Assembly: GCA_965649765.1 (NCBI GenBank)
Contig: OZ287751.1
Location: forward strand, 11,470,001 to 11,534,000
From: Bispira polyomma
Lineage: Eukaryota
Direction: 5' to 3'
DNA length: 64,000 nucleotides
Part shown: in pieces, positions 2,187 to 51,043 of the stretch
Layout of the letters: every line of letters starts with the position of its first letter
Position numbering within the stretch: position 1 is the first letter of the stretch
Program-made: the position numbers and the translations under genes
The notes under the pieces: generated by a model
What the model was told of the DNA's origin: nothing
The model's database searches: none
Seen by the model: the letters and a program-made list of their open reading frames with translations, nothing else

Positions 2187-2262
2187 TTAAGTCATAAATT
2201 AAACATAAATGTTTTCAAAATTTATGATCGTTGTGGTAAAGGGGAGGTAGGTGGAAAAGTTC

Positions 2263-2463
2263 GTGTTTCCTTTACTGATTCCTGTTCCAATATGGAAGCT
2301 CTAATTTTTGGTGGGAAAATTATTCATGAAGAAGGCTTCTTATTGGTCAGTTGTGTGGGTGAACAGATCGAACTTTGGTCAGATCCATTCGCCAGGGATT
2401 AAGGTAGAAAAGACTTTACTGTACAACTGAACTAGCAGACCCCTATTGGGTCGTGCTGTGCAC
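2263..2463 (-). repeat. E1 split direct repeat A2
   Basis: 201 bp, 2 mismatches by eye versus 7860-8060. Confidence 0.95.
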
Positions 2464-2659
2464 AGTTGTCCTTGATAAAGCCAAAGAGTGGGTTTTAAAG
2501 GTAAGGTTAATTCTAACAGTGAAAAGGCAAGAAGGTAATTTAAGGTTTGAGGTATCTTTTTATTACTGTACATGTTAGTGTAAAATCTATGTACAATTTA
2601 GGGTAAAACGTCAAAGACAGATTTAAAAATAGATGAGATTTTTAAAAGCCCGAGCCAAA

Positions 2660-3629: not shown

Positions 3630-3635
3630 CTGAAA

Positions 3636-6434: not shown

Positions 6435-7737
6435 CTATTTACTGGGGTTAAGCCCCGATTCCATTTGCTTGGACGAGTTAGCTTTATAACATTTGAATTC
6501 GGGATGCTGAGCTTCATTATGGAGTACTGTCGAACAGTGCCAGCACACGTGTTTGTACTGGCTATGGTCTGACTTGTGAGAACACTTTCCTGTATTGAAC
6601 ATCTTACAGATAACCCTAGGTTGTTGTGCGCTGGGAAGTGTAGAGGTACCGTGCCCTTTCGTGTTTACAATCGCCATCTGAGATACACTCAGTCGATTGA
6701 GTGCCCATTGGGTGGAATCGTTCCAGGATAGCCTGCCTTCCTCAATTTCGGTCATATTGAGGGCCCAAGTAGTTTTTACCACTTCCCAAGGTAGCGATGA
6801 CGCATCTCGGAGTGCCAGAACGACTTGTTGGATCATGTCCCGCGATACTCCGGGGTCAGTTACTTGTAGGGCATTAGTCAGCCCACTGCGGGAGAGATAA
6901 ATCATCGAATGCAGGACGTTTCTTCGCTGCACCCCCAGTGCATCCCTCGTTGGGCCATCTTAACTTAGGGTTACTTGTTGGTATGTCGGTGTAGTTAAAC
7001 CGGCCAGATTTTTGCCTAAGGGCAGCCTTACCTTGTGAAAAGGCTGCCTGTGCTTGTAGGTTATATTCGGCCAACTTCTGATTAACCAGTGCCTGAACAT
7101 CTGGGATCGCTTTCAGCACGTCTGGCTTGGGGACAATGCCGTCTGTAGAGTACGTCGAAATGTTCATCGCCCCTTGCCCTTGTTGCGTGGCCATGGGTAT
7201 GGCTGTCGCCCCTGTGTAAGCAGTAGGTAAGATCTGTGCTGTCACGCTCGGCTGCTGTATTGTTGTAGCAGGTATCCTGATAGCTGTCTCACCTGTGTAA
7301 ATAGTAGGTAAGACCGGTACTGTCGTCTGCTGCTGTCCTGTTGTAACAGGAATTCTGTTAGCTTCCTTCTCTTCGACTCCACTGATTCGTCTGGTCAGAT
7401 CTGCGTTAGACTGCTCCAGGCACCTAAGAATCTCAAACATTTCCGGTTCGTGTCCCGATGTAGTAGGGTGAGAAACCGCTGAGGTTGCCTGTGGCTGTAT
7501 ATACTGGAATGGAACCGTCATACCCGGATTCATTGCTCCTAAGACTTGGCTGTGTGCATTAACCGGGGTTGTCAGCTGGGAGGGCAATTCCTGACCGAAT
7601 AATTAGTCATTGACGATACTATCGTCCATGTTAACGTTTATTACCTTTGCTTTACCAGTTTTCTTCTGTACTTTTGGTTTCCCGCCCACTGTAGCTGGTG
7701 TCTTCTTTGTTGTATGGAGCCTTTCAGAGCGCCCCAT
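6435..7737 (-). pseudogene. E1 Gag-like ORF (stop at 7603-7605, frameshift ~6880)
   Basis: ATG 7737; basic N-terminus, coiled coil, KSGR...WP motif, C-terminal Cys/His zinc-finger-like motifs; homologous to E3 gag. Confidence 0.88.
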
Positions 7738-7859
7738 TATCACAAACAATATAATAAACACGTAAAACACAGTAATTATTAAAAACAAACAATGTAAAAA
7801 ACTAAAATACAGGAATCTGTAATGCCTTCATAGACTATGGCAATAATTTTTAAAACTTT

Positions 7860-8060
7860 GTGTTTCCTTTACTGATTCCTATTCCAATATGGAAGCTCTA
7901 ATTTTTGGTGGGAAAATTATTCATGAAGAAGGCTTCTTATTGGTCAGTTGTGTGGGTGAACAGATCAAACTTTGGTCAGATCCATTCGCCAGGGATTAAG
8001 GTAGAAAAGACTTTACTGTACAACTGAACTAGCAGACCCCTATTGGGTCGTGCTGTGCAC
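7860..8060 (-). repeat. E1 split direct repeat A1 (5' end)
   Basis: Copy of 2263-2463. Confidence 0.95.
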
Positions 8061-9350
8061 TGTCCCCAATATTCAAACGAATCTTCTGGACATTGTGTTT
8101 TATGACATAAGCACTTTTCATAATATACAGGTTAGTACCTATAGTTTCACTCCTGTGGTATTATAGATAGATTTACCAATTCTTAACTTGGGATTTGCAC
8201 CCCTCTTAAGAATTTCAAATTATATTTTACTAAATTTATATACTTTAATGCATTTTAAATAATTTATGCAATTGCACATTTTGTTGTGAGAATTTTAACA
8301 CTGAAAAATGTTCGCCATCTTTGAAAATGTACTGAAACATAATTGGTACTGGTAAAAGTAAATTTGCTCCGCTAGTTTTGAGTATGCTTTTTCATAAATG
8401 TCAACTCACTAAACACAGGCTTCTTTAGTAAATTCATGTCCAGCTGCTGAAATCACTTTGGGGTTTTCATGTATACAATGACAGTTTAGCTGGGGGAAAA
8501 GTCTCACTTTTCAAACATATGTTAAGACCTTTTCTCACTAGAATATATTTCACTCCTTTTAGTAGATACAAATAAACAGTACATGAGCTTTGCTTCTTTT
8601 ACCCAATTAGAATTAATTAATACTAAATGTTTATTTATATGCTACCCCGTATTTTCCATTTGTGAATAAAATTATATTTTTCACAATACATTCTGCATTG
8701 TTTCTATGTGAAATGAGGGTGAAAAAATGACCTTAGCAGATTTTTTTTTGTGTATTAAGCACTTGAAGGTTGTTTTTATAATGTATAATGGATACTCAGT
8801 CCATGCGTGGGTGGGTGACAATAGGAGCCCATAGAGGTTAATTCAGTCCAGCCTAACAAGGAGGTTGTTTGGTGTTCTTAGTAGGGCCACTAGAGGGGGT
8901 GTGGTGTGGTGTCCTCGAGTTTCAGCTGATCTTAACGAAAACATCAGTGGGTGTTGATAATATAATGGTTGTAAACTCTTGGGTAGACTTTCTAACCCCT
9001 TGGTGACTGAAAAAATGGTATTCAAAATTAATGTAGAGTGAGATGGTCCAGATCGGTAAGGTTGCTAAAACGCACACCACTAAACACCTTTCATTTTTTT
9101 TAAAATGGTGTACATATAGTATTGCACAAATGGCATGAAGGAAGAAATTATGACCCTACCAGTAATATATGCAGGTTTCTGGCACTATTGTGTTGTCAAA
9201 AGATATACAGCTGATATAACAAACATCAATAAAAAGAGATCTATAAAACGTTTACAGTTGCAGTGTTTGGAATTTCTGCAAGTTTTCGACATTTTTTACC
9301 ATTTGAAACAGTGTTTCTATGAATGGCATGTATAGCACAAATTTGATTAT

Positions 9351-15108: not shown

Positions 15109-16095
15109 ATGCCTCCTAAAAAGAAATTCTCTTGTAGTGCTTGCTTGGGAAAACAAGAACGGCCTGTGGGAAAGCGTGGTCGTTTTCAAGTTGCCGAGGA
15201 TGTGACCCCGTTGATTTTGCTACTTCAGGTAATATGTCTGATTCAGTGTACGGTCAAATACTACAGCAGTTACAAGCTTTGAATAAAAAATGGAAAGCAT
15301 GGATCAACGGATACAGGTCACGGAGGTGGCGCTGTGCTCACCCGGCGCCAATAAGGCACGTATGACTTCTCAAACTAATGTTAGTGTTGCTAGTGTATCT
15401 GAGCCAGTAGTTGAAGCTGTGGTCCCCTCATTAGAGTTTTTACGTACAAACGAAAACCTGCAGTCACAAGTCCACCAGTGTTTAGTCCAGCTACAGCAAC
15501 TCAATGAGCTAGAAGGAGGTAAACTTAAGTCCCAACGAGGTGGTGTCGAGGCTCCTATAAAGAAGCATGTGGATTGGCCCCAGAATTATGTTCTATCCAG
15601 TGTAAAAAAGACTAGGCCCACGTACGACAATCTTTCACTACTTCAGTTAACCTCGGGATTTGTGAGATGTATACAAGAGCAAAAAACGTCGGAAGTACGG
15701 GAGGCAATGTTGGAATATCTCGCAAACCTCATGGATGACGCCCATGATTTTTCTTGGGAAACGGTTAGAATTTCTGATGCCATTCTACTTACAAACATGG
15801 AGCTAGACCGTTTGAAATGGACGGATGCGGAAAAAGTGGACTGTGTCCGCAGAACCCACGCACAACCCCATGTCGCCCCAAGTGCGAATGGTTATGGCTC
15901 GTCCAAAACAAGTAATAGCAAAGGTAAAAGTCAAGCTAAAACCCAAGGGGTCGTCTGTAGGTTCTTTCAAGAAGGAACGTTTAAATTCAATGCCAGCCAC
16001 CGTACTTCCGGACAACTTTTCAAACACTGTTGTGAGAACTGCGACTGCTATCATCAAACCAAGTTATGTACAAAAAAGACCTTGCAAAAAACTAA
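15109..16095 (+). pseudogene. E2 Gag-like ORF (frameshifted)
   Basis: MPPKKKFSCSAC...RPVG N-terminus, VPSLEFLR, KLKSQRGG...WPQ, Cys/His-rich C-terminus. Confidence 0.85.
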
Positions 16096-16119
16096 GTGGC
16101 CACTGCAGAATTGCAGTGG
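16086..16119 (+). promoter_or_regulatory. Candidate -1 ribosomal frameshift signal (E2 gag-pol)
   Basis: A AAA AAC TAA, 7-nt spacer, then the perfect stem-loop CCACTGCA-gaat-TGCAGTGG. Confidence 0.75.
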
Positions 16120-22100: not shown

Positions 22101-22339
22101 AGTGTGGGTAAGTGGGGGGGGATATATCCTATCTTTTCCTATGTAAGTTATTGTGTAGCAGATTGGCGTAATGATACATTACTAAGTAGAACATAGGGAA
22201 CATTATCAAGGATCTTTTAAGCTGGAAGAAATTACAATGTCCCACTATACTTATACTAGTAGTAACAATCAGTATCCATTAATAAAAAATTGACTATGTT
22301 GCTGTAAATTGACTGTATGAAGTACGAGTGTCGGAACTT

Positions 22340-23871
22340 CTTTTGCAAGGTGCTAATTTAACTGTATCAAGTACTACATTTATCTTGTTTTCTGATGTAT
22401 TATGAGGTATTAAATTTACCATTGGTTGAGTGTGTTTTACTAAAGTGCTAATTTAACTGTATCAAGTACTATTTTGATTTTGTTTTATGAGGTATTAAGT
22501 TTACTATTGATTGCGTTTGTTTTAACAAAGTACTGTTTCAACTGTATCAAGTACTACTTTAATTTTGTTTTCTGAGGTATCAATTTTACTGTTGATTGAG
22601 TGTGTTTTAACAAAGTACTTATTTAACTGTATCAAGTACTACTTTGGTTTTGTTTTCATGGTATTAAGTTTACTGTTTGTTAAGTATGTTTACCAAGGAG
22701 TTTTGTTAACTGTATAAAGTACTACTTTGATTTTGTGTGCCAAGGCATTAAGTTTAGTATTGGTTTTGTGTGCCAAGGTATTAAGTTTAGTATTGGTTTT
22801 GTGTGTCAAGGTATTAAGTTAAGTATTGGTTTTGTTTGCCAAGGCATTAAGTTTAGTATTGGTTTTGTGTGCCAAGGTATTTAGTTAAGTATTGGTTTTG
22901 TGTGCCAAGGCATTAAGTTTAGTATTGGTTTTGTTTGCCAAGGCATTAAGTTTAGTATTGGTTTTGTGTGCCAGGTATTTAGTTAAGTATTGGTTTTGTG
23001 TGCCAAGGCATTAAGTTTAGTATTGGTTTTGTTTGCCAAGGCATTAAGTTTAGTATTGGTTTTGTGTGCCAAGGTATTTAGTTAAGTATTGGTTTTGTGT
23101 GCCAAGGCATTAAGTTTAGTATTGATTTTGTTTGCCAAGGTATTAAGTTAGTATTGGTTTTATGTGCCGAAATATTAAGTTTAGTATTTTTTTTTTCCAA
23201 GGTATTAAGTTAAGTGTTGATTGAATATGTTTGTATTTTCTAATTTGTCTGTATCAGGTACTTTGATTTTGTTTTCTGAGGTATTAAGTTTATTATTTTT
23301 GGATTTTCTTTCACCAAGGTGCTAATTTAACTGTACCAAGTACTACTTTGATTTTGTTTTCTGAGGTATTAAGTTTACTGTTGGTTGAGTTTGTTTTTCC
23401 AAGGTACTTTTTTACCTGTATGAAGTACTGATTTGATTCTGTGTGCCAAGGTATTAGGTTAAGTATTGGTTTTGTTTGCCAGTGTGGTAATTTTAGTGTT
23501 GGTTTTGTGTACCAAGGTATAAAGTTTAGTGTTTGTTGAGTATGGTTTACCAAGGTTCTAGTTTAACTGTTTTAGGTACTTTGATTTTTTTCTGATGTAT
23601 TATATAATTTTAAGTTTACTGTTGGTTGAGTTTGTCTTACCAAGGTTCTAATTTAACTGTATCAGGTACCTTGACTTCGTTTTAGATGAATTATGAGGTA
23701 TTAAGTTTACTGTTGTATAAGTTTCTTTATCAAGGTGCTAATTTAACTGTACCAAGTAGTACCTTGATCTTGTTTTCTAAGGTATTAAGTTTACTGTTGT
23801 TTGGGTTTGTTTTTCTAAAGCTCTAATTTAACCGTATTAAGTACTACTTTGATTTTGTTTTCTAAGGTATT
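22340..23871. repeat. Composite minisatellite: ~84-bp units flanking a homogeneous 33-bp core (~22739-23220)
   Basis: Core unit gccaaggcattaagtttagtattggttttgtgt; flanking unit aaggtgctaatttaactgtatcaagtactactttgattttgttttctgaggtattaagtttactgttggttgag... Confidence 0.92.
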
Positions 23872-25904
23872 AGTAGGTCTTTTGTAAGTCAGTTGTGGGT
23901 AGTTAATATACCCGTAACTGACTTACAAAAGACGTAATAATTAAATGCAATACCTTGGAAAACAAAATATTGTTATATAAATCATAATAGGTCGTCATGT
24001 TAGTGATTTTTTTCCACAACAGATCAAGTTCTAAAATCGTATGCCATTTGTTATGGGGATAGTCGTGGGGATAACTCATGGATGTAGGACTCTATGCAAA
24101 AGCTGTAGATTGTTTTTGTTAAACTAATAATTTCAGTTCACAACACATTAACTGTAATTACTAATGCCTAGGTCACACATTTAAGGTTTGGCCCACGAAA
24201 CAGCTGGGTTTTTAACTCCAAAATAATCCAACGGCATCCTAAAAATGACCTCGATCACCAGTAGAGAAATGAAGACTTATACCACTATACCTGTTACTTG
24301 GCAACAAAAGTTTTGAACTGTACTTAACTTCCAAATCCCAGGGAACTGCTAATTTTTGTTGAAGGAATCAAAACTTGGCTGTACGTGACTAAAACAAACT
24401 TAAACTTAAACATAGCAAAAAATTCTGTTTGTGTAATTGTTGTTGATGTGTATATATGTAGTTACCCATGAGGAACCTTGTGTATACTTAGCCATAATTT
24501 GTAAAGCAGCAACAAATATATTTAGCAGCAACTTGACAAACCAAAACCACCCTTACAAAATGGACCTAAGGATGGCTGCGGGTGATTGAAAATGGTTTGT
24601 CTGTATATACATACGTTTATCATAAGCCGATATATATGGCAAAACCTTGAATGTATGAAAGAGGCATAAGCACCACTACTTTCTAATAATGTGGTGTTCT
24701 ATACAATGTTAATTACACAAACTGTGCTTAGTTTGTTGAGCAAGCACTTTAAAGACTCTCCATTGCGTACCAGGGGATAACAATCAACCCGGTCAATATA
24801 TTGGCAATTACCATAAGTTGTTCATCTTCTAAGAACTCCTATGTAAGAAGCATGCTTGTAGCAAGCTTAATGTTAAGCTTTCAAACAGTGACAAATATGC
24901 ACAGTTACTACCCCCTGCCATTTGGGTGTATTTATTTATCGTGATATCTCTATACAATTGACATCTTAATACAAAATACCAAAAAGCTTTTTTGCAAGCT
25001 TGCAGTCAGTTAGTTGGACTATATGTACTAAATCTTGCCAGAGATCTGTGATAAATATAATAGTAGATCAGATAGCATATAAAGTACTGCAGGCGACAGA
25101 AACACAACAGTTTCATCCGAAACCAAGGAGATCTCAAACAAAGTCAAACTTTGGCATCGTATTTTGGGGGGAGGGAAATACTACAATATACAGATGAGAT
25201 AATCATGTGGCCATGCACTGGTAATGAAGCTTTGAATACTAAATTCGAAGACACATGGTATGTTTTGTAACAGAATTCTTAAGATTGGAAAAGTTTGCTG
25301 TTAGTATTAAAACTAGCAGCTTTAAGGGCTGACTTGAACTTGAAGAATTGATTGCCTACTAGATGGATGCAACAGAATTCTCATAGTGGCCATTTAAGTC
25401 AAGCAGTTGTGTGAATTGTTCCTAAATTGGATCCAATAAAATCTTTCCACCTAGTTGGTGTGTAGATGTGTGTGTGTGGGGGGGGGAGGTAGGAAGAGGC
25501 AAATGTTTGGGGGGGGGGGGGTATGTGTTGCTCTCTGTCCCTTTCCAAATGTCGATATTTAACTGTAACTCTACTTAATGGTATGATATATATCTCACTG
25601 CATGGGATGTATATATATACCGTAATGTAGACATTTACTGCATCTATGGTAAATGCGTCTCATTACACTTATGAACAAAATGTTTTCTTTCTGCTGGTCA
25701 ATTTTTTTCCGAACTCTTTTTTGGGCTCATTATTATAGTCAACAATCTCAATATTTGACATTTTTTTATAGTCATATATGAGATCCTGCATATCATACTG
25801 TCAGCTTAATGTCAAGTACCACAGATTTATTTAAAGAAAGTGTATTTATTACCACTTTTACTGTACCAGTATTTTTCCGCCGGGAGATATTTCCTATATA
25901 ATAT

Positions 25905-29490: not shown

Positions 29491-31869
29491 ACTTTAAAAA
29501 ATCACTTGTGGAGCTGCTACAACAAAATGTTAACATTCGTTGCCTGGCCAGTCTTTAAATTTTAACTCACATATGAACACCAAACTAAGTGTAGCTATTA
29601 AAGAAGTCATCTTTATTGAATGATACACTTTTATATTTATTGTGTGTACACATACATGAATGCAAACACATATGCACCAGTCAAAATTAGGAAATGATTT
29701 TTTCCTCGTGTTTGAGTTTATCCTTAGCTCATTTGTCTACCATTATCTGATATTTAAAGTGCCAACTATTTTTTCTTGGTTGCCTAAGTACAGCTAACTA
29801 GAACCAATCACTGTCATAGTAACTGAAGACAGTTCGGCTTGGGGATGATTACTTCTCAACGTTTTGAAGGCAAATTAGTCTGTCACTGGTAATATTCACT
29901 GTGAGAGAGAACCACTGTTTTAAGTTATCAAGGCCATTATGTATCTGCCTTGACTGATAAGCCCCAGACTAGGATCTAACCCAAGTCCTCTGCATTCTAA
30001 ACCCAGTGTGTTGCTGTTTATTGTGCTGAACCTGAAGTTATGTTTGAATTCTGCCTTTCTATCAGTGTCATTTTTTACTGGTATTTCAATATTGTCAAAG
30101 GTACACATTTATGTCGGTCATATTTCTGTTTTCTGAGGAAATTAGGTAGGCAATACGGTAGAAAATACAAGAACATGACTATATGCACTTCAGATATATA
30201 GTTCAGATATATCTTAAGAGCACAAAGATAGTTTTAAACTGTAACGAATAACGACCATTTTTCAGCTTTTGCATACCATCAAGATTTACTAACAATATTC
30301 AAAACAAATAAACTTTCAAAATCCTAATGTATTTTCCTTTTTTTTCATAGAAATATCAATATTTTAGCAGTGGACCATAAACAGGTATATAACTTATTCA
30401 TGTAGAGAATGAATACATACTCACAGCTGAAGCTGCAACACTAGTGCATACTTTGGACACACATACAATGGTACAGACCAGTTGTTCCCTGAATAATTTA
30501 GTGACTTAGCTTAAACCCTGGTAAATATCTACAGCCTAAAATGGTTTACATCTGACTCTGTATGATCTATAATCAAGCCATTATTAGCTCCCTTCTACAA
30601 ATTTTTACACCTTCCCATTGTCGACAAATGTGCATTTTGAGACCATAACACACTTAAAACAAACGTTATCTTCATTCTATATAAGCCATTTATAATACAG
30701 GCTTAGCCTTATTAGACACTATACTATCTCTTAACACAACATATTTTTTTATATAAGGGGCGAATTAGGCACGTGGAGCGAATATCTAACTGAGCTGTAC
30801 ATTTTGGGGATTACGACAATGATGCTGTTTAGCCGGGATCTTTCTCATAGGCTGATGACACTTGATTACTCTGTGTGTGAATATGTGTGTGTGTTGGTAG
30901 TGTGAGTTTGTGGCCACATCAGTCTATATATGTGTGTGTGTGTATCCCTCTTTCTCTGTATATAGTGTGTAACTATTATAGTTATATCAATGTAGAGAGA
31001 ACATAAAAAGAGGAGGGGGCGTAATCAAAGGAAATAGTCTGGATATGAAACATCAATGGCTCGGACTGTTAAAAAAACATGACACCGCTCTCACTCCAGA
31101 CAACCCACAAATTCTAGCTTGGATATGCCTAGTTACCATACACACACACCCACACACACACGCAGTGGTAGATGAGTAGCAATGCTCAGGAGGGGGCTGG
31201 CATATATATATATATATCTGTCCAGTGGTCTGGCTGGTGGTCTCTGAGTTTAAGGCAGTGGGATAGTGTGCTGTATGAGATGCATAGAACTGCTTGTCTC
31301 TGAGCATCTGTGTGATTAACATGGATATCTTGGTATGGTAAAAGAGTGGTAGTTATTTAGAGAAATTAATGGTTGATGTTCTTTTTTGGGGTGGTTGTGG
31401 TAGAAAGTGTTTAACCCCTAAGAGAGGATAACTGCACTTACAGGATAACTAGAAGATGAAATAAAAGGATGATTTTATTGGTTGTTAAATTGCAGTAGCA
31501 TCAACAGGGATGTTTTTGGTTGATGGTTATACATTACATTGTGAAGGAATTTAGATAGTGTCTTGTCTTGTTATTTTTAGAATAAAGTGGTGTGTAAATT
31601 GTGATGAATTTATCTCTTTAAAAATGTATTAATGGAAGTGATGGATTGTTAAAATTTGTAAATAATTGATGAAGAAGATCCATTAAAAGAAGCACCCTAA
31701 AAATATAATATGCTACACACAATATATTCTAGTAAAATTCTCTATTTTAATGGCAACTTCAAATACATATTTCAACTTCTTGTCATTGAACATATTCACT
31801 TAATATAAAAAAATTATATTTGAAAAAAGCATATTCTCATTAGATTAAACCTAAACTTTGGCTCACAAG

Positions 31870-32307
31870 ATGGCACGTTTATACCGGTTTGTCAAGCTTA
31901 ACGATCGTTTCGATACACAGGTTTTCACATTTATCCTACCTGGAACGCTAGGGCAGGACAGCGCACATCGGGATGTTGAATCCAAAGAGTTCCTCTACGG
32001 ACACCAGAAATGGCAGATCCTGATCACGCGAAATGAATCTCACATTGGGGCCTTTCTCCTGCTCAAAAACGCCACAGACGGCCTGACCTGTCATGTAGAT
32101 TTCTACTTCACCTTCACCAATAAGGACCACTTTGCCAAGAATGAAGCGTACTCGGAAAGGAAGTGCAAGTTCACAGCAGAAAAGTTCAAGGTCGGTCGGA
32201 AAACATTTGTTTCCACTGCAGATCTCAACGGCCGTGGCTTTTTACAGGATAACAGTAATTACCTTCTGGATCTAGAATTGAGAGGCATAAGTTCTGTCTT
32301 TGAACAG
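31870..32307 (+). CDS. First coding exon of a host gene with a MATH/TRAF-like domain
   Basis: Acceptor ctcattag at 31843, ATG 31870, 146 codons (SKEFLYGHQKW...IGAFL...VDFYFTF...GRKTFV...GFL...LDLEL, a MATH-like pattern), donor CAG|GTGAGA at 32308 (phase 0); coding-like GC content. Confidence 0.85.
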
Positions 32308-32740
32308 GTGAGATGTTTGTGATACAATGTGTTTATTTAATGTCATCAATGTTATGCATGCAATGCCTATTTTTAGATGTTTTGTGTCCTTTCTTTTTTG
32401 GGGCTACACAGATAAGCTTAGTATAAATCACAGTTAATCAATATAGACCTGGCCGGATGTTGTACTAAATTGCATTAGGAAGGTTGCAATAAATTAGTGC
32501 TTCCATTTAGCTAGTTGTAATAGCTGGGAACACTGAGTCAGATGTTTTTGGCGCTTAACCACAATCCCTCAGCTTTAAGTATTTTTTTTTAAACTTACCC
32601 CTTTCCTTCCCCCAAAATAACTGTTCAGACATGTCTGTCTGCCCTATACACAATACATTTACAAAGTCCGTTAGTATGACTGCAAGTCTGCAATGAGATT
32701 TAACATTTTATTTAACAGCATGTCAGAATTTATTTACTCA

Positions 32741-34967: not shown

Positions 34968-36120
34968 ATTATTATTATTTATTATTATTATTATTATAGA
35001 TTTTTAACGCGCTTTATTGATGCTAGGCATCTTCTAAAGCGCAACGGCAGAATCATTAGTCCAATCATTAAGTCCATGGAAATTGCAGAGTCGTAAGGAA
35101 GGAAGTGGGAGCGTGCACGAGGAAAGCTAAGGTGGGTAGGCAAGATTAAAAAGATAGGTTTTAAGCTTTTTCCTAAAACCGATAAGTGTGTCAACTGATC
35201 TGAGGTCAACTGCGAGACTGTTCCATAACCGTGGAGCTGCGGTGGAGAACGCTCTGAAACCCGCCTTTCTGATTGGTCTGACTGAAGTGACAGAGAGTCT
35301 GTTGCCTCTCTTGTGGTTACTGAAGGAAAGAAGGGAGGCAAGGTAGGGTGGCTGTTGAGTGATTACAGCCTTAAAAGTGATAACGTGAATTTTAAACAAA
35401 ATTCGAGATTTAATGGGCAACCAGTGTAATTTTTTGAGGTAAGGAGTGACGTCTGTGCGACAACCCAGGCGAAAAATGACCCTACATAGGTAGTTTTGGA
35501 TGGACTGGAGCTTTTTAATGTTTGACTTATTTGCTTTGTACAAGAGAGAATTGCAGTAGTTGAGGCGGCTACTTACAAGGGCATTTGCCACAGTTATCGC
35601 TGTGTCCATGGACAAGTGGTTTCTGATTCTTTTGATGTCGTGTATGTGGTAATAGCAGGAGCGACAGATGTTGGCAACATGAGTATCGAACAAAAAAGCT
35701 GAATCAAAAGTGACACCCAGGTTTATAGCATTTTCGGAAGGTAGTATGTCTTTTCCCAGCAGGGAGATGGGAAACAAAGATTTTAGGAGTTCACTGTTTT
35801 TCTTGTTTCCTATGAGGATGAATTCTGTTTTGTCAGGGTTAAGCTTTAGTTTGGAGTAGTTCATCCACGCCTGGACATCAGACAGACAGTCTGCAAGTAG
35901 GTCTATGTTAGTATCTGCGTTTTGTGGATTGAGGGAGAAATAGACTTGAGTGTCGTCAGCATACATGTGGTGTTTTATATTGTGTTTATTGATGACAGTG
36001 CTGAGAGGATGTGTATAAAGGGTGAAAAGTAGAGGACCAAAGACGGATCCCTGGGGTACTCCATATGGAAGTTTTATGGAAGATGATAGGTGATCATCTA
36101 GTTAAATTCTTTGTGCCCTA
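34968..36120 (-). mobile_element. 5'-truncated L2/CR1-clade LINE
   Basis: [42 protein letters not shown]; short 3' UTR; (AAT)n tail 34968-34996. Confidence 0.95.
35127..36100 (-). pseudogene. LINE ORF2 C-terminal RT fragment
   Basis: ORF 35127-35966, with the frame open upstream to ~36100. Confidence 0.92.
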
Positions 36121-40240: not shown

Positions 40241-41280
40241 CCCGGATTCAGAAAAAAACCCAACACAAATGGTTGTCAATCAAATGTATAACCACAGTTC
40301 TTGTCAAGTGGAAATAAGGGTTTTATGACATGCATTTTCAAACAATAAAAACACCCTGTAAAGTGTGAATCTTCGCCATAGGATGCAAGAACAAAAGGGT
40401 CTGTACTTTTTCAGGAATTAAGGTAAATTAAGGTAAATTCTCATTACAGTACACAAGTACGTTTTTCCGAATCTGTACAGCAACTTAATAGTCTCTTCCT
40501 TGCTCATGCCTAAAATAAAGCTTGGTCAAATTGGTTCAGTAGTTGTTTTTTTTGTGTAAACAAACACAAACAAACTGAAAAATAAACCAACAGAAAGGGA
40601 CAAAAATGTGACCTCCCCGACGGTTTTGACAGATTCAAACAAGATAAAAAAAGGACACCAAAATACACTTATTGTGTATGTATATTACAACTCCATTGGT
40701 TATCTATTCAAAATGTTTAGACTTATATGACTGAAGGTATGTTAAATCAATACTGAAAACAAATTAGCAATGCAAAAAACAACAATTACCTATGGCAATG
40801 TTTCATCACATAAGTGTTATTGCCTCACTATGTACCTAATGGGGATTTCATGGGCATCCAGTGAACTGGATGAAATGACTAGTCAATATATTCTCTTGAT
40901 AATTGTGTTCATCCATTATGCAAACAGACCATTAGGAGTACATTGACCTCTGTAGCCAGATATAGCATGTGTACTATAGTTACTGAAATCCCCATGGAAA
41001 CAGTCATTGATTTTTTTTCTGACAGTTACTTACTTATATCAGGATTGTTATGGATGTAGAATATTTGATTCACTCAATGTCGTTTTTGAAGGCACTTAAT
41101 GCTTTTATTTCCAATTATTAAGAACTCAAACTAAATTTAAATTATTGTGGTTGAGGGCAAAATGTTGCTCATATGCAATAAACCAAAGTAAATATTTTCA
41201 TAAATAAGTGGCCTTTGTATGTATGATCCAGTATTCATAGGTACTTTGCAGTAAACAGTAAAAAGAAGGCCACATTGTTT

Positions 41281-41486
41281 CAATCCAGTTCTATACGATG
41301 TGAAGCTAATAAGTTATAATTCTTTCCCAAATAATTCTTAAAGGGAATGGAAAGTTGTAAATTTGACAAGACAGTAAAACTCTTGTTTGAGGATTTTATT
41401 TTACACGTTAGTATATATATATACAAATACAGATAATGAAATAAAAGTAAAAATTTTAAAAAGTTTACTTTGAAATTTTGACACCC
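41281..41486 (-). repeat. E3 repeat B2 (3' end)
   Basis: 206 bp, 2 mismatches versus B1. Confidence 0.95.
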
Positions 41487-41909
41487 CTATCAGTGTCTAC
41501 CAACATATATAATACATATAATAAAAGAAGTATCAATAACTGAATTTCTATCGATCCAATAGAGATCATAGTATACACAAATACGATAATGTAATTTATC
41601 GTTGCATCTAAATATTAATAGAAGTTGACTAAAATTATTAAAACAAACTTTTACTAACTAGTTCAATTATTAACTGATTTGAACATAATATAGAGCAATA
41701 GGGTGTGTTAACTATTCAGCAAAGTACACTTGTGCCTCTGACCAAATCTTTCCCCTGACATTTACTAGTAAACTAGTTTCTAACACAGTACACGTCCATT
41801 ACATTTTTTGGCATAAACCTGTCATTAGAATAATGCATTACCCCTGTATTGGGCCATAAACACATCATAAACACGTCGTAAATGCGTATATAATTATAAT
41901 TCGTTGCAC

Positions 41910-42358
41910 TATCAACAATATAACACATACATGTGACGTCTTGTGGTACACTAAGTATAAATTTTACATATTAATATTACCCATAATTACTAGTATTTCT
42001 GAAGCTAAGCTTCTAACGTTGGCGACAGCTCAAGGGTGCCCAGCTACCCCTGAAACCGTCTATATTACACTACACTGTAGGAGGAAGGTTACTTAGAGGA
42101 AAAGATTGTAATAAACTGGATTATCATAATTAAATTTTTTTTCATTATCAACAATGTAACACACATATGTGATCGTCTTGTGGTACACTAAATATTCAAT
42201 TTTACATATAATACTACACATAATTACTAGTATTTGTGAAGCCACAGCTTCTAACATTGGCGACGGCTCAAGGGTGCCCAGCTTCCCTTAAAACCGTCTA
42301 TATTACACTACACTGTAGGAGGAAGATTACTTAAAGGAGAAGATTGTAATATAACTGG
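41910..42358 (-). repeat. Two diverged 236-bp-period repeats in the E3 spacer
   Basis: Units start at 41910 and 42146; colinear with substitutions and small indels. Confidence 0.9.
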
Positions 42359-42751
42359 TTACATTAACTAACTACTAATTATACCTTAATCTGTCAAAGA
42401 TCATGTAATGGGTCACATATCTTAATATCAATGGGAATTCAAGCAAAATCCCTATGAGAAACTGAATTCTTCAAAGAAAAAGTATATAATATTCCTATAT
42501 ACCCTAACACATGAAATTTTTACAATGTCCTGGAAAGGAAAGAACCCGACCTACGGCACCAACACGCCTAGCCTCGGTCGGTCCCTGCTCGCAGAGCTCC
42601 GAATTCCCTTAGCAGCCACGCCAAGGGCAAGTTTATGGAAGCAGGAACCGAACTCGACACGGTATAGATTCTCCCCATCCCAAGCCACTCGTATCCTAGA
42701 ACTCGCCCTATTTCTTGCTGTGGTAAGGGGAGGTGGTGGGTTTTGCAATAT

Positions 42752-43157
42752 ATGTTGTTGCTCGTTCAAGTCTCGAGTTAATAATGGTGGAAAGTAGAGG
42801 GGAGCGGTCATGGGTGGATGGGTTTGAATTTAATTGGTTGTTACCCAATAAACAAGAAAATAAAAAAGTAGGTATAACCTATGGTGTTTAAGGTTGAATT
42901 AATCTTATGTTGGACTGAACTAACAGACCCCTATAGTAGTCGTGTTGTGCACAGTCCAGTTCTATAAGATGTGAAGCTAATAAGTTATAATTCTTTCCCA
43001 AATAATTCTTAAAGGGAATGGAAAGTTGTAAATTTGACAAGACAGTAAAACTCTTGTTTGAGGATTTTATTTTACACGTTAGTATATATATATACAAATA
43101 CAGATAATGAAATAAAAGTAAAAATTTTAAAAAGTTTACTTTGAAATTTTGACACCC
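42752..43157 (-). repeat. E3 internal B1-A2 junction block
   Basis: A2 is identical to A1 by eye and B1 matches B2; they abut at 42951/42952. Confidence 0.95.
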
Positions 43158-43165
43158 AAGCCCAA

Positions 43166-44142
43166 CTAAGAGAAAGAAGGAATGGTGGAAGCGAACGTGA
43201 GGGGAACTACAGAAGCTGCTTCTGAAGTTTGTTGTAGATAAGTCCACACTGCTGAGGATCTCCATAAGCCGTGTGACATAATATTCTGTAGTGAAACATT
43301 ATTATTGAATGCGTATGTGGCGCCTGATCGCCTGAATGTGTGAAATCCATGAAATTTGTATTCTATCCCAATGTGTTCTAATATTTTTTGAAGTGCTGCC
43401 CTCACGTGAGAATCCACTATTGGGTAAAAAGGTGGAGTAGCTGATGCAAATAAAGGTGCATGAGGAGGTAAATCCCTGGAAGCTAGTAGTTTCCTCAAAG
43501 CCAGGACTGGACATAACACCAAGTTCTGCAATTGAGGAATCTGTATGTTATGTGTATCAGATCTATTCTGTAGATTTTTTGCCCATTTTAATGTAATATG
43601 GGCTCCAGGTGGAATAAACAATAGATCCTGTCTGAGGAATTGTCTTGTAGGATCAAATGAAGCCCTAGAATGTGATGCTATATTAGAAAGCCTTAAGAAG
43701 GCAAAAAATGCCAGCAGAAAAATGGCCCTAAATAGTGGTGGATCGTGTAAAATGTCACATGCTTTAGATATGCTGGCTAACTGTTGTATGCTGAAAATGC
43801 CTTTATGTTTAGGCTTGAAAGTTGAATTATGAGTCAAACTTCTCAAGAAAAGCTGTATGTACTTATGAGATAAAGGAGTGGTATCTAGTTGGAATTTTTG
43901 TGTCATATATTTAATAGCTGCTACATAGTTGTTTATTGCACCAGGTGATAACCCTGCCTGAACCAGATATTCTAGAAATACTAACACTGAATGAACTGTT
44001 ACCTCAGAAATGCCCACAAAGTGATTAAAGGACAGGAAAGTATTAAATTGTGCTTTATATGTGCTAGCAGTCTTTGGACTGATGGCTGTATCAATCCTGG
44101 CCCAAGCAGAGGGTATAAAGCTGCTGCTGATGTTGGTAGAAC
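43166..44142 (-). CDS. E3 tyrosine recombinase (intact frame; no initiating ATG, begins at the predicted splice acceptor)
   Basis: FFAFLR, FHTFRRSG, HGLW, WTYL catalytic motifs; open 44142-43166. Confidence 0.93.
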
Positions 44143-44148
44143 CTACAA

Positions 44149-46932
44149 TTAAACAAATAAATTGAGATTAAAGTGTTCCAGTGTGACTTGTTTCCACTGG
44201 AATTTGTTATTGAGTGTATTTAACATTTCCAAAGGAGGTGGATGAGCTGAGTAAATCCTTGAAAGAGCGTCAGCTATAACGTTTTGCTTACCAGGGATGT
44301 GTTCGATGGTGAGTGTTATGTCGAATGTTGCTGCTATCAGCCATAAATTTCTTAAGCAGAGTGCCAAAAAGTCGTCTCTGGTTTTCTGTGATCCGACAAC
44401 CAATACTACAGCCATATTGTCACAATGAATATTAAGTTTGCTGTGGGCCCAGTCATTAGCCCATATTCTTACTGCAATAATGATATTCAACATTTCTAAA
44501 TGTGCTATGTTGAGATCTCTGTTGTAAAGGTTATGAATAGGGGTTGCGTATATCTGTTCACCCCAGATTCCTCCGCAGCCTGTAAGGCAAGCGTCAAGAT
44601 GAAGTTCGTTCGCGTGTTGAATGATGGTAGGCTGAATATATGTGATGCCATTATAAACTGGGAGAAATGTTAGAAACCATTGTAAATCGTTTTTCATAGC
44701 AGTATCGACCTTTATACGTTTGTCTGTATTACCTCTACACGCCATTAACAGTCTATTTATAAAAGTACGCGCTGGTTTGACACATTTATGTATATAAAGT
44801 AAACTGCCTAAAAGGGATTGAAATTTATTTTTGGAAATGAATTTTTTGTTATATATTTCTAAACAAAGGTTCCAAATTTGAGTAATTTTTTCCTTAGTTA
44901 TAGAAATAGTACCTTCCTGCACGTCTATGTCTATACCTAGACATGTAATGTTACAGGTGGGAGGAGTGAGTTTTTCACTATTCATGGGTAGACCTAGTTT
45001 TGTCAAGAGATCTATAAGAATTTCAAAACCCTGCTGAGCCTTGGATTTAGGTACTATACATATATAATCATCGATGTAGCATAATAAGTTAAAACCGGAT
45101 TTTCTCATAAAGTAAGCGACTGCGTCTGAACAACGCTGAAATGCCCCGCTTCCATGTACCCAGCCGAAGGGAATTGCCGGATCAAGGTACAAGTTGTCAT
45201 TCCAGAGTATGCCCAACTTAATGGCCTCAGCTGGGTCGACTCTGAGGTTACGAAACGCGCGCGAAATATCAATTTTGAATAGAGTTGGTTCTTCAGTATT
45301 AATAATTGCCTGTGTGATGTCATCAATAGTAGGAAATTTTAATTTAAATTTTACACCGTCAAAGTGTATTTTATCAACATTGTCATTCAACGAATTTCCA
45401 TCAGGATATGAGAGATTCAAGATTATCCGTCTTTTATCAATATCTTTGGGACGAGTTAACAATGGAGAACAATGAAGTTGAGAGGAATTTATTGCTTTGA
45501 CTGGGCCCAACATAGCTCCCTTACTCTTTTCTTTCTCCAGGTATTGACCAACTTCTTTGGTATATTGTAAAGCAGAGAAATGATTGTGTATTTCTGTGTT
45601 CTTTAACTTATTATGATTTGTAAGACTTAGAGGAAAGCCAAACTTAATGTATTGTATTATCAATTGATCAGGGTAATCATGAAATATGTCTTCCCAAGCA
45701 GTTGGGTTCAACCCCGAACCAATAGGAAATCTAGCTTGTTTGTAATTAGGAAGTTGAGTGTCACTAATTACCTTGCCTATTCTAATCATCTCATCAATGG
45801 AATCAATGTTCACTAGTTGTCTATCAGGGCCATTGAACTCAAATTTTGTATTAGAAAGTGCAAAAAAGCCTTTTTTCTTATCTGGATCATTAATGTGAAT
45901 GTCACCAGAACTGGTAACTTCCTTAAGTTCATGTATATATGTACTGTCACAATTTTCGAAGAAGAGGGATGCGTCCTTTTCTGGTACGTCGTTATTACTC
46001 ACCTGCTGTTGCCTGGTAGTACTGTCAGTTAAGTTTATTGAATCATCATTTACTAAACCTGAACTATAATCTGACACCTCAGATTGCAACATTAATGTGT
46101 CAATAATATTTTCAATGTATGAAGTATAATCATAGCCATAACGCTCCCAGCATTGCAGATCTTTAGTATAATTGTAATGGTCATTGACCGACTGTTGCTT
46201 ATCAGTGTGAGAATGCATGACCATACTATGTGGTGTTACATCATTGCTTATACTGTGATTCAACCAAATCTCAGTCTCATAACAATCTATGATCTGCAAT
46301 TTATCTGTAAAGGTTATGGCAGTAGGTGAATAGATCATACAATTATCAGTATCAGAATGACATATACAATAAAAGCCGTTGTCAGAATGTTGACTACTTA
46401 CACTAGACATATACACTACAGGTGCCATAACACCCCCGTATGTAGAAATTGCATACCAATTCGTGACTGAAATTTTAACTTTACTAACCATGTCAAGTTG
46501 GCTATCAACATTCTGCCAAAGTTCATTTATAATCACCTTTTTATCATTACAATTCATGCCATTTGGTTTTCCCATATTCAGATTGTCTGTAATATTCTGA
46601 TCACATTGAATTATATCTATTACACCATTCTTATCAACAGTGTCTACGACATTTTTATACTCTATATCATAATTATCATAATGCCCCCATTCAAACTCCT
46701 TGGTTGCCTGAATGCTGACATTTTTATTTTTTCCAATGTTCTGATAATGTAAACATTCAGAGTTGTTTATACCTTGAACATCACCGTTATTGGCATTGTT
46801 AGAATTTAATTTTGTATACCTACATTTATTGAGTTTTGGAACATTATTCTCAATGTTAATAAATTGGTTAATATCATTACTCTGCTTACCTTTAAACTTG
46901 CTATTTCCGCTGATTGGCTGACGGTATTGTCC
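44149..46932 (-). CDS. E3 Pol: N-terminal extension + RT + RNase H (intact)
   Basis: 808-aa ORF with YIDD, LDAC, HLEMLN, CDN, ADALSR; the frame stays open a further 119 codons up to the gag TAG. Confidence 0.95.
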   Translation of the reverse strand, partial: GQYRQPISGNSKFKGKQSNDINQFINIENNVPKLNKCRYTKLNSNNANNGDVQGINNSECLHYQNIGKNKNVSIQATKEFEWGHYDNYDIEYKNVVDTVDKNGVIDIIQCDQNITDNLNMGKPNGMNCNDKKVIINELWQNVDSQLDMVSKVKISVTNWYAISTYGGVMAPVVYMSSVSSQHSDNGFYCICHSDTDNCMIYSPTAITFTDKLQIIDCYETEIWLNHSISNDVTPHSMVMHSHTDKQQSVNDHYNYTKDLQCWERYGYDYTSYIENIIDTLMLQSEVSDYSSGLVNDDSINLTDSTTRQQQVSNNDVPEKDASLFFENCDSTYIHELKEVTSSGDIHINDPDKKKGFFALSNTKFEFNGPDRQLVNIDSIDEMIRIGKVISDTQLPNYKQARFPIGSGLNPTAWEDIFHDYPDQLIIQYIKFGFPLSLTNHNKLKNTEIHNHFSALQYTKEVGQYLEKEKSKGAMLGPVKAINSSQLHCSPLLTRPKDIDKRRIILNLSYPDGNSLNDNVDKIHFDGVKFKLKFPTIDDITQAIINTEEPTLFKIDISRAFRNLRVDPAEAIKLGILWNDNLYLDPAIPFGWVHGSGAFQRCSDAVAYFMRKSGFNLLCYIDDYICIVPKSKAQQGFEILIDLLTKLGLPMNSEKLTPPTCNITCLGIDIDVQEGTISITKEKITQIWNLCLEIYNKKFISKNKFQSLLGSLLYIHKCVKPARTFINRLLMACRGNTDKRIKVDTAMKNDLQWFLTFLPVYNGITYIQPTIIQHANELHLDACLTGCGGIWGEQIYATPIHNLYNRDLNIAHLEMLNIIIAVRIWANDWAHSKLNIHCDNMAVVLVVGSQKTRDDFLALCLRNLWLIAATFDITLTIEHIPGKQNVIADALSRIYSAHPPPLEMLNTLNNKFQWKQVTLEHFNLNLFV

Positions 46933-48290
46933 CTAGCGATTCGTACTAAGTTCTGAATTCTTGTTCAAATTGGATTGAAATTTGAAGCATTTAAACTCTG
47001 GATGCACAGCATCCTTGCCTAATGTCTTTGAACAATGCCAACAAATGTGACGGTAATTTGCATGGTCAGCTTTATAGGAACACTTCCCATTATTATACAA
47101 TTTACAGATCGTCTTGAATTCATTACTTTGTTTCCCCTTGCTTGAATCCCCAGTGACATTGTTAGTATTGCTGCTTACTAATGCCGTCTGTGATGCGCTA
47201 AGTCTATTTAGCGCCCACTGCGTTTGATTGTCCCACGTGAGACGTCCTTCCTCTACCTCTTGCATACTGTGTCCGTATGCCGTGCGGACGACCGGCCAGG
47301 GGAGAGCGGCCGCGTCCCTGAGTGTATGTACTATCTGTTGAAGCATACCTTTCATCACGACCGAGTCTGTCACTAAAAGAGCGTTGTTTACTTGCCCTGC
47401 TGCCCATTGGGCCAAAGAAAGTTCATCAAATGTAGGTTTACGTTTTGCATTCGCTCCGACCCACCCCTCATTCGGCCATCTAAACTTGGGGTCTGCTGTT
47501 GAAATATCAGCACTGTTGTAACGACCAGATTTTTGTTTTACTGGCTTACCTTGCAAAATGTCCCGCTGTATATTCGCATCGTACCCGGCCAACTGTCTGG
47601 CTATAGCTGCTTGGATGGCTGGAATCGCCCTCAGTGTATGTAGTTGAGGAACCACTCCATCACGGCCGAATTCGTGTTGAACCGGAAGTTGGTGAACCAA
47701 GCCAGGGTTCGGTCCCGCCGAAGCCACTGTTGAAGTACTGGGATTCGCCGTGAAGAGCTGAGTTGCGGCGACGTCTGGTACCTGCCTAGTGAGAAGTGCT
47801 TGTTGAGTCTGAGCAGTCTCGACCCGTTCGATACGTTTGCCGAGTTCGGCGTTTGAAGTCTCAAGTCGCTTTAAGATGGCTAGCATTTGTGAAGAGTTGT
47901 CTGAAGTCGACCCGCTACCCGAAGGGAGTTGTTGATCTGTGTGTAAAGTCTGGCAACGTGGTGGTGTGATCCCGCCATAAGCCGAATCTCTACCAAGAAA
48001 TTAAATGGTAGAGAGAGCCCGACTTCTGGTACAACGCTTGTACTCAAAGGCGCACGTGGAGGTGTGGCCTGAACATAAGTAGCTCCGGACGTAGTTATGA
48101 TCGATGATAGTGCATCTGAAGAAAGATCCGAAGATCTAGAGGCTAGAGCGGTGAGCGGGGCATGTACTTCTGATGCTATGATATCAGTTACCTGTGAACC
48201 GTCGTCTGTCGGAACACCCTTAGTTTTCTTCCCCCTCACCTTCGTAGTAGTAGACCGCGTAACAGGAGTCTTCTTCGCCGTCTTCCCCAT
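46933..48290 (-). CDS. E3 Gag-like protein (single frameshift near 48000)
   Basis: ORFs 47880-48290 and 46933-47886; coiled coil, KSGR...WP, Cys/His zinc-finger-like C-terminus. Confidence 0.88.
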
Positions 48291-48400
48291 CTTCTTAGTT
48301 CATATAAAGTGTATATATATTGTCAGACTGAATGTATAATGTAAGAACAAACTAAAATCAAACAAATAAAATTCTATGTACATTCCAGTCGTTGCAAGAA

Positions 48401-48600
48401 ATGTTGTTGCTCGTTCAAGTCTCGAGTTAATAATGGTGGAAAGTAGAGGGGAGCGGTCATGGGTGGATGGGTTTGAATTTAATTGGTTGTTACCCAATAA
48501 ACAAGAAAATAAAAAAGTAGGTATAACCTATGGTGTTTAAGGTTGAATTAATCTTATGTTGGACTGAACTAACAGACCCCTATAGTAGTCGTGTTGTGCA
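48401..48600 (-). repeat. E3 repeat A1 (5' end)
   Basis: 200 bp, identical to 42752-42951. Confidence 0.95.
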
Positions 48601-51043
48601 TTGTCAGTTGAGTTTGCATGATTGACTGTTATGTAATACACACTGAATATGTTGCACCTGGGTCTGTATTTTGTCAAAAAGTATGCTCTTTTTATGGGCT
48701 TAATTTAGGCTTATAAATAATATATATATAGTATATAAGCTCGAATGGGCTTGTTTCCACCAACATCCTTAGGGTATGATAACAGGTAAACAATTGAGTT
48801 ATTTTGTATTGGTATTTTGAAAAATATCTGAATTTTGTCAAGCTAATATAGCAACAATGTAAACTCATTAAAGAAGAAAATGATTGCATGTATGGAAAAA
48901 AAAACACAAAATATATGGTTAAAAGTTTACTTGGATGTTTTATAGAGTCGGATATCTCTCCTGTATTTCCAAAGGCTGTGTGAAAGTATGTTTGCACATA
49001 TACCATCAAATTTCATTAAGGTTGGACGTTATAATAGCACAAATTATGTTTTAATTTTTATATGTATGATAATAATATTAATTTTTATATTACAATTGTC
49101 TTTGCAGATATTTTACTTCTGATACATATCATATTTTACACACCAAACAAGAACCTATCATTATGGCTGGATGTTCAAAGTTCTGAATGGAATGTATTTT
49201 AAGCTAAAGTTCAGCATTGTTCAACACCGCTTTGAACAACAAAGATTTATTTGATTAATTTTCACATATCTTCCCCAACAAACACATGCACCACACAAAT
49301 AGCTTTAATGACAACAGTAGAAGCCTGAAGTGTTTATTGACCGGTTGCAGATCTGTGGCTATGTGAGTTGGGCTTTAGGCGATCAGTAGGTAATTAATAG
49401 CAATACCTACTTAGTGATTAGGTTTCCGCCTCAATCCCATCAACGACAATGTGATAATCAAAAGAAAAGTGGATCCCTTTACAATGAACAAAGCAATTTG
49501 TACAGAATTAAGATGTTACTGGTTGCTAGCATATTTGAACAGAAGGTAGTGTATAAAGGGGCAAGCTGGAAAATGTTTTTAGTGGATGTGAAGTCAGTAC
49601 TGTATAAAAGTAGTAACTTGTGAAGGCAGAGGGTGAGTGATACAACAGGTGACATAGATGGCGTTTAGATATGTTTATGTTGATATGATATCACTAATAT
49701 ATCGCTTTGAGCACGCAATGAGTCAGTTGTTAAACAATAAAACATAAAGGTTTAGGGTATGAGGTTGAATAAAATAGTCTTGTAATTCAATTCTCTTTCA
49801 ATTCTCTTACAATTCTTATCTTGGACTTGTCACGGGATAGTTTGTAGTTAATCCCTAATGTGTTGTTGACTGTAATTCTATTTAACTAGTTTTGAGCTTG
49901 CCAGTACTGCATTACCATGTATATGCCAATCTGGATTTAGTATCTCTATCTGAGCAGTCAAAAAGTAACAGGATTTCATGTTCATCTTGAAGCAAAACTT
50001 AAAAATAGAAACTTCAAGCTTTGTCACTCAGGCAATAATTATAACTTGGGTGAACTTAATGCCTAATACACAGTGTTCAAGTAAAGGGTTTTAATTTAAT
50101 GAATTTTATAAATATGATTAAAAATCTTATAATAACTAATGCTCCCAAAATACACAAGTTATGCTAAATTTATATTGTCACATGGTGAACTCAATATGTG
50201 TTTGCATTATATTCTGTATAAACATAATTAACCAAAAATGTATATGGAATATCAAATAACTAGAGATGCAATAGAAGTGTTAGATATTTATTTCATATAG
50301 AATGGAAGAAACTTGACAATGAAAGCGTCAGTTTTCTCATAATGTATAATACACAGCTATCCAGCTATATTGACTATATCGTCAGCAAATAGTAACACCT
50401 ACTGGGGCTAGGTTAGGGTTTGCAATTAATGTTAAGCTCCTTCGTAATAACTCATATTTTTGTAAAAAGCTGTTTCATTGCTACAATCAATTCATAAGGA
50501 CAAAGCTTTTTTTCTCATTTGTGATTCACACTAGATACAAATATAACCACTTTTGTGGAAAAAATTGAAAGTGAAATAAAGTTATTATTTGTGTGTCCGT
50601 TCATGAATATATATTTTTGTGTAATATACCTGTATTAATGGTGCTGTTGTTTATAAGGCATAGGTGTTTTTTTTTCACAACACTCCCATCAATTTACTAA
50701 TAATGTTTTACAACAGATGCTGCAGAATCAAAACTATGTAAAACTGTCCATATTAAATATGCACAAAAATCCACACAAATATTGGCGTATTTATGAAACA
50801 CCCATAAATTCACCAAGAGACAGAATACCTTTGACCATTAGTGATATTAACCAATACCTATATTCTTTGAAAGTCTAACTTTAGGTTCACGCTTTCTAGA
50901 AATCCTTGTATTTTGTTTTGGTTAAAATCCTTGACATTTGACCATTTATTTTAATAGTGCTAAATTTAAATATAGTATTACATTTGGTGTATAGCCCTTC
51001 TCGCCAGACATAGTGGGGATACCTCGCAGTTGAGCTTTTAAGA

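Follow-up and report, generated by a model that had tools for sequence, protein, structure and literature searches.

In a 64,000-nucleotide stretch of Bispira polyomma DNA (contig OZ287751.1, positions 11,470,001 to 11,534,000 of the forward strand; called the window in what follows), the retroelement that we name E3 carries its gag-like and pol genes in one and the same reading frame, with a single amber codon, followed by G, between them. On its sequence E3 is filed as a Ngaro-like tyrosine-recombinase (YR) retrotransposon of the order DIRS, and comparison with other copies and with relatives makes this TAG-G a real, conserved feature of the clade to which it belongs. We consider it probable that readthrough of UAG joins gag to pol in this clade: most ribosomes would halt at the codon and release Gag, and a small share would insert an amino acid there and continue, producing at a low ratio a Gag-Pol fusion in which a long flexible linker, a small beta domain, RT (reverse transcriptase) and RNase H would follow one another past the UAG. 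The parts of E3 involved are the following.

48001..48290, minus strand: 5' part of gag, from the ATG at 48290, which this copy has out of frame with the remainder of gag
46936..48000, minus strand: main gag-like frame, whose end lies 18 residues past a Cys/His finger (about 47109-46990)
46933..46935, minus strand: single in-frame amber codon, then G, in the junction AAT CGC TAG GGA CAA TAC CGT
46576..46932, minus strand: 119-codon open linker of the pol frame, rich in Asn and lacking Met
46573..46575, minus strand: first in-frame ATG of pol
46264..46488, minus strand: five-stranded beta domain ahead of the RT (AlphaFold2, residues 10-84, block pLDDT mostly 81-94)
44935..45435, minus strand: reverse transcriptase domain (YIDD), PF00078 (RVT_1), E 2.1e-9
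44260..44496, minus strand: RNase H-like domain, PF13456 (RVT_3), E 3e-4, 21.1 bits against a cut-off of 21.6

On the minus strand, the stop-to-stop frame 48000-46933 (355 aa) is followed at once, and without a change of frame, by 46932-44149 (927 aa), with the TAG at 46935-46933 directly followed by GGA, as had been claimed in the original prediction, made from the letters alone. The prediction had also counted 119 stop-free codons up to a Met at 46575 and let the frame run on through RT and RNase H; both points hold, the RNase H match lying just under its curated cut-off. The linker has no stop in the pol frame, against 8 and 24 in the other two frames. With the base make-up of this region a stop is expected at 9% of codons, and the naive probability of 120 open ones is about 1e-5. 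Thirteen out-of-frame ATGs precede the first in-frame ATG, and no CTG, GTG, TTG or ACG occurs in frame until the codon just before it, which makes reinitiation or scanning unlikely in E3. A changed genetic code is ruled out, as the YR frames of E3 and of its sister E1 also end in TAG.

That sister, a diverged element of the minus strand at 2255-8063, has the same codon at the same place:

6435..6437, minus strand: in-frame TAG-G of E1, AAA TAG GAA, aligned gap-free with the E3 codon

E1 and E3 are 48% identical in the C-terminal part of gag and 47% in pol, and tblastn of one against the other finds no match over the first 149 pol-frame residues. E1 has 151 Met-free open codons after its TAG-G (naive probability about 1e-6), seven of the near-cognate start codons considered above being among its codons, and decay has put several stops elsewhere in the element. 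The linker is thus open from the stop onward in sequences that can no longer be aligned, and the stop itself is therefore the most likely point of entry for translation into the pol frame. In the gag tree E1 and E3 are sisters (100/98), which makes them one old lineage, not two origins. Comparison of E1 with itself shows a pair of A repeats and no pair of B repeats, and its 3' end may be truncated or rearranged.

DNA of other copies came from three runs of organism A, covering two samples of one study, possibly the same source as the window. A contig of depth 295 (run X1) spans 46414-46941 with a single differing letter, and since this letter matches a change listed at 46660, the contig reads TAG. 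A second contig, with a depth of 342, begins at 46912 and shares 30 letters with the first across the TAG; flanking bins have a depth of 14-18. On neither deep contig is the TAG flanked by 31 letters on each side, 908 further differences lie outside the list, and depth is not copy number; the deep contigs presumably pool many near-identical copies. Of the 40 listed differences, 23 fall inside open reading frames (ORFs), with 9 synonymous and 14 not, and in the linker two of three are synonymous, which is too few to use. The original prediction had proposed to look for the TAG-G in other copies, and named a sense codon or an out-of-frame junction there as what would tell against it. The TAG-G is kept in the depth-295 contig and in the diverged E1, and is implied by the proteins of relatives; the contrary findings were for the most part absent.

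These proteins were collected with a gag profile, from which the best 150 of 1540 representatives at E<=0.001 were taken, together with 7 from another search and further cluster members; a search with pol returned 33 proteins. The final Cys/His motif is present in 54 homologues, of which 35 stop 12-18 residues beyond it, 5 stop sooner and 14 extend further. For six of the 14 long ones there is a relative that ends in a stop and has 7 or more tail residues in common with them (this threshold was chosen once the table had been seen), and in all six of these placeable run-ons the exact position of that stop is taken by a Gln, Trp or Tyr (P0023 Q, P0068 W, P0091 Y, P0117 Y, P0136 Q, P0157 Q; five events, P0136 and P0157 being counted as one). 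These three residues make up 13% of tail residues. The residue that follows is Gly or Asp, whose codons start with G, in five of the six, and TAG is the sole stop codon that is one change away from Gln, Trp and Tyr codons alike. This pattern suggests that a TAG occupies the stop position in the DNA of the relatives. Three of the nine run-ons with a tail of at least 30 aa continue into pol-homologous sequence (P0117, E 3e-17; P0157, E 1e-60; P0202, E 9e-176). The stretch of peptide next to the stop is conserved over 51 aa between P0117 and P0136/P0157, at 49% (E 1.5e-7) and 47% (E 1.8e-6). The run-ons are scattered in a clade beside E1 and E3, in a tree with bootstrap values not fully settled; the RT tree is a quick version, and the trees are of unnamed relatives.

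We also looked for the DNA of these relatives. Scans of viral contigs gave 32, 20 and 36 pattern matches and scans of metagenome contigs 110 and 78, none of which was confirmed; a scan of genome contigs gave 77, of which one was confirmed, a 27-residue match (E 5e-5) in GC-rich bacterial DNA that was dismissed as chance. Longer fused forms (733-2090 aa) were absent among 8000 candidates, which is weak evidence. Many relatives (P0023, P0175, P0176, P0178, P0183, P0186-P0189) have a run of Gly in the linker ahead of the beta domain, which suggests a G-rich tract in their DNA or RNA; no such run is evident in E1 or E3.

A number of observations weigh against readthrough and have to be set beside this evidence. 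Junctions have been read as DNA only in E1, in E3 and in one study's pooled contigs. Of the 14 long tails, eight are too distant to be placed or do not fit; P0116, with 6 of 13 tail residues identical, has Thr at the expected place of the stop; the stop position of P0202 is ambiguous; P0023 has Arg, not a residue with a G-starting codon, after its Gln; and P0136 and P0157, which make up the whole of their cluster, each have Gln there, and this subfamily may thus be a true, natural gag-pol fusion, or else two copies of one mutated insertion. Nor does RNA structure come to the help of the proposal. Five local folds of E3 and E1 were no more stable than shuffled sequences (z 0.18 to 1.73), with a program that does not model pseudoknots, and no strong first stem was seen in E3; the best long-range duplex with the 60 nt downstream was equalled by shuffled sequence in 4 of 20 and in 9 of 20 trials of a coarse, low-power comparison; and Rfam had no match at E<=1 over 40800-49000. 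The author of the original prediction could find no convincing downstream stimulator by eye. The prediction had also likened the context to that of murine leukaemia virus (MuLV), the gag-pol readthrough site of which has UAG-G. As no 3' structure was found, that likeness is limited to UAG-G, and the reading that the original prediction proposed is partly supported, by a TAG-G that is kept in the deep contig and in E1 and implied in relatives. Sites of type III generally carry a 3' structure (PMC3542737), and the in-frame stop junction of the retrotransposon Tca2 gave no readthrough in a yeast reporter (PMC2194720).

It also counts against readthrough that the same facts, namely the TAG, the G that comes next, the shared frame and the open linker, would be accounted for equally well if the gag stop were a weak splice acceptor, TAG|G, joined in a minor spliced RNA to a phase-0 donor in 5' gag so as to make a short-Gag-Pol fusion. 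In E3, strong phase-0 donors are present at 48239 and at 48191, these elements appear to splice for their recombinase, and a CAG in P0136/P0157 would preserve an acceptor. Against such splicing, there is no pyrimidine tract at the site (positions -15 to -4 hold 5 pyrimidines among 12 bases, in E3 as in E1), of the YAG sites 129 of 186 and 154 of 197 have a higher score, and the stop sites score 4.5 and 4.0 compared with 9.0, 7.5 and 10.0 for the recombinase acceptors. In relatives, gag tails end in Lys in 11 of 26 cases, and 7% of gag's last four residues are Phe, Leu, Tyr, Cys or Ile. Furthermore, the sole donor common to all three elements of the window is of phase 1, out of frame with TAG|G, and the only phase-0 donor listed in the 5' gag of E1 scores 6.2. 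We take splicing at the stop to be unlikely, and retain it at that level because our splice scores are crude, being counts together with a donor matrix, and because weak acceptors do occur in retroelements. It is more improbable still that pol is translated alone, from an internal promoter, through an acceptor deeper in the linker, or by reinitiation at the ATG 46575, the shared frame being then a relic. The conserved beta domain and the RT do lie entirely downstream of that ATG, acceptor-like sites exist at 46740 and 46466, and the junction of Tca2 contains a minor promoter (PMC2194720). This would leave unexplained, however, the 119 and 151 open, Met-free codons of linkers that cannot be aligned, the conserved peptide right after the stop, and the relatives with a continuous frame from gag to RT, and the 13 out-of-frame ATGs stand in the way of the first in-frame one.

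Two further explanations bear on the codon itself. The UAG might be partly edited in the RNA, A to I, and read as Trp, as happens at the amber/W site of hepatitis delta virus. Editing requires exactly what is seen, a UAG and an in-frame continuation, but it needs a duplex at the codon, and none stands out locally or, for the 60 nt downstream, at long range; we hold it for very improbable. Finally, the TAG could be a private nonsense mutation in a dead copy of an element with a single ORF, an idea that the damage to gag elsewhere in this copy, the decay stops of E1 and the Gln at the stop in one subfamily of relatives might encourage. It is largely refuted, and we give it next to no weight: the deep contig reads TAG, E1 has TAG at the aligned place, and 35 of the 54 homologues stop 12-18 residues after the finger, near-identical full-length members of the cluster of P0008 among them. 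Readthrough of the UAG is, among these explanations, the one that we prefer. For annotation, an in-frame TAG at this place should not count as decay.

The recombinase of E3 has a frame of its own, and splice signals are found where they could serve it.

47544..47552, minus strand: candidate phase-1 donor AAG|GTAAGC in the QG|K motif of gag, first intron base 47549, tied third of 237 GT sites
44143..44160, minus strand: candidate phase-1 acceptor right behind the end of pol, tied third among 315 AG sites, with 44142 as the first base of the exon
43166..44167, minus strand: tyrosine recombinase frame, PF00589 at E 3.8e-6, PF02899 over residues 25-90, PF13495 over residues 29-92

The first Met of the YR frame is residue 88, near the end of the N-terminal domain. 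All three elements of the window, including the third one, E2, have a phase-1 donor in the QG|K motif of gag (E3 47549 and E1 7031, both minus strand; E2 15519, plus strand) and a phase-1 acceptor behind the pol stop (E3 44142, E1 3629, E2 18327), the acceptor of E2 ranking first of 227 and that of E1, with a score of 7.5, falling outside its top eight. Gly-Lys or Gly-Arg is present at the donor motif in 58 of the 71 gag homologues scored. The recombinase would thus have an RNA of its own, in which the QG|K donor is joined to the acceptor behind the pol stop, with no need of readthrough, and these signals probably reflect a spliced RNA for a Gag-recombinase fusion. Another strong phase-1 donor of E3, at 46889, 46 nt after the first base of the stop, was not relied on, its phase being unmatched in E1, where the site at 6405 is of phase 2.

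E2, on the plus strand at about 15.1-18.9 kb, provides a contrast within the same window, as its gag-pol junction is of another type.

16086..16119, plus strand: E2 junction of the -1 frameshift type, with A AAA AAC, TAA, a 7-nt spacer and a perfect 8-bp hairpin

A slippery heptamer, a spacer and a hairpin are the usual anatomy of a -1 frameshift site, and the -1 frame is open at this place, so that the junction is a candidate for frameshifting on these features. E2 is decayed, and the frame that ends in TAA is not continuous with the upstream gag ORF. It resembles E3 at 24% in gag, about 40% in RT/RNase H and 34% in YR, and shares with it the QG|K-type donor and the acceptor after pol, yet differs by its frameshift-type junction and lies outside the clade of E1 and E3 in the tree.

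The assignment of E3 rests on its genes and on its terminal repeats, in AT-rich eukaryotic DNA (GC 0.30-0.43 across the window). Gag, RT/RNase H and YR follow in this order on one strand, and self-comparison gives the repeat order A1-ORFs-B1-A2-B2.

48392..48609, minus strand: split direct repeat A1, at the 5' end of E3, 97.7% identical over 219 nt to 42743-42961
42952..43157, minus strand: split direct repeat B1, 99% identical over 206 nt to 41281-41486
42743..42961, minus strand: split direct repeat A2, partner of A1
41281..41486, minus strand: split direct repeat B2, at the 3' end of E3, 1.26 kb beyond A2

A YR takes the place of a DDE integrase: PF00589 is matched at its cut-off, and the HxxR motif and the C-terminal Tyr can be seen in the translation. 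Pfam scans of E3 returned no protease, integrase or env domain, and no methyltransferase was matched by Pfam in E3 or in three full-length relatives; the TAA that ends pol, at 44151-44149, comes about 35 codons past the RNase H match, which leaves no room for one. Between E1 and E3, repeat A is 86-88% alike in its first 40-44 nt (42914-42957 and 48563-48605 against 2426-2466 and 8023-8065), no match being found between the two over the remainder of the repeat, and this shared part is likely to be a recombinase or priming site. The spacer between A2 and B2 (41487-42742, 1.26 kb) includes an internal duplication of 234 nt at 88% and has no match in Rfam; bins over 42444-42991 have a contig depth several times that of most of E3.

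The proteins on either side of the UAG are less easily recognized than the enzymes. Pfam has no match for the gag of E3, and its nearest Atlas clusters are unnamed eukaryotic proteins, a weak recognition; its basic N-terminus resembles by eye that of relatives. In this copy gag is broken, the ATG at 48290 being out of frame with the main frame that starts at 48000. Near this position the window and the high-depth contigs differ in length, for which reason the break looks private to this copy. The beta domain is followed by two helices in the AlphaFold2 prediction and is conserved in pol relatives. Foldseek gave no match in PDB or in viral structures at E<=0.001, the best Z with VIA-align was 3.8 and Atlas had no usable match, which does not make the fold new.

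Elsewhere in the window, an open frame with a MATH domain at 31855-32322 on the plus strand (PF22486, E 8e-9) is probably the exon of a host gene, and an RT fragment at 35127-36101 on the minus strand (PF00078, E 1e-16) looks like the 3' end of a non-LTR (long terminal repeat) retrotransposon. A mixed tandem array of 33-nt and 85-nt units, with a strong strand skew, occupies 22311-23894.

The mechanism of readthrough is itself well known, in gammaretroviruses and in plant viruses. The hits of full-text searches and the available portions of PMC9210276, PMC3783388, PMC8547959, PMC6681497, PMC7192593, PMC9341512, PMC13003380, PMC5009743, PMC12440569, PMC4157794 and PMC3266345 hold no report of gag-pol readthrough in a YR retrotransposon, a scope outside which lie Gao et al. 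2003, Goodwin and Poulter 2004, Poulter and Butler 2015, supplements and Repbase, which may mention it. How YR elements express their RT and recombinase was, in the literature found, proposed rather than tested, and the clade of E3 offers exact coordinates at which both steps could be tested: an amber codon in the case of Pol, a donor-acceptor pair in that of the recombinase. For those interested in recoding and in transposons, the point would be a readthrough apparently devoid of the usual 3' structure, with a frameshift-type relative in the same 64 kb. One may tentatively go further and imagine a switch of recoding among Ngaro elements, with structure-free amber readthrough in one clade and -1 frameshifting in a related lineage, both combined with a spliced Gag-YR, an idea that we would not yet count as the likelier outcome; if it were true, it would provide a scheme for the expression of three proteins and a structure-free UAG-G readthrough signal.

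It remains to place E3 among known systems. UAG-G is the general context of type III readthrough, found also in tombusviruses and luteoviruses; the definition of this type asks for a G or a purine-rich octamer behind the UAG (PMC3542737, Table 5). E3 has it between a Gag-like gene and an RT gene, as TAG GGA, and E1 as TAG GAA, with 6 of the 8 bases after the stop being purines in both; the compact pseudoknot or stable stem-loop that type III places about 8 nt 3' of the stop was not found. The contexts to compare are UAG-GGR in Tombusviridae and AAA-UAG-GUA in luteoviruses, E1 reading AAA-UAG-G. E3 differs from MuLV in that it is not a retrovirus and that a 3' pseudoknot, a stem-loop and, in the coarse comparison made, distal pairing went undetected. 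Tca2 of Candida albicans is similar as a retrotransposon whose gag and pol share a frame interrupted by a single stop, and different as an LTR element with a UGA stop. Ngaro elements are the natural term of comparison. Their layout with split direct repeats (PMC8547959) is that of E3, A1-[gag, RT/RH, YR]-B1 A2 B2, where RH stands for RNase H, and the absence of a methyltransferase, which separates Ngaro from DIRS1-like and PAT elements (PMC3266345), and a short overlap of pol and YR in -1 are further likenesses; B2, on the other hand, sits 1.26 kb from A2. The view of the original prediction that YR elements usually have overlapping ORFs agrees with the description of Ngaro in Xenopus (PMC9210276) and not with the statement that Ngaro elements are usually without overlaps (PMC3266345). 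E3 differs in having gag and pol in frame across one UAG, and its splice signals fit the expression of the recombinase better than the frameshifting proposed for YR in a review quoted in PMC13003380.

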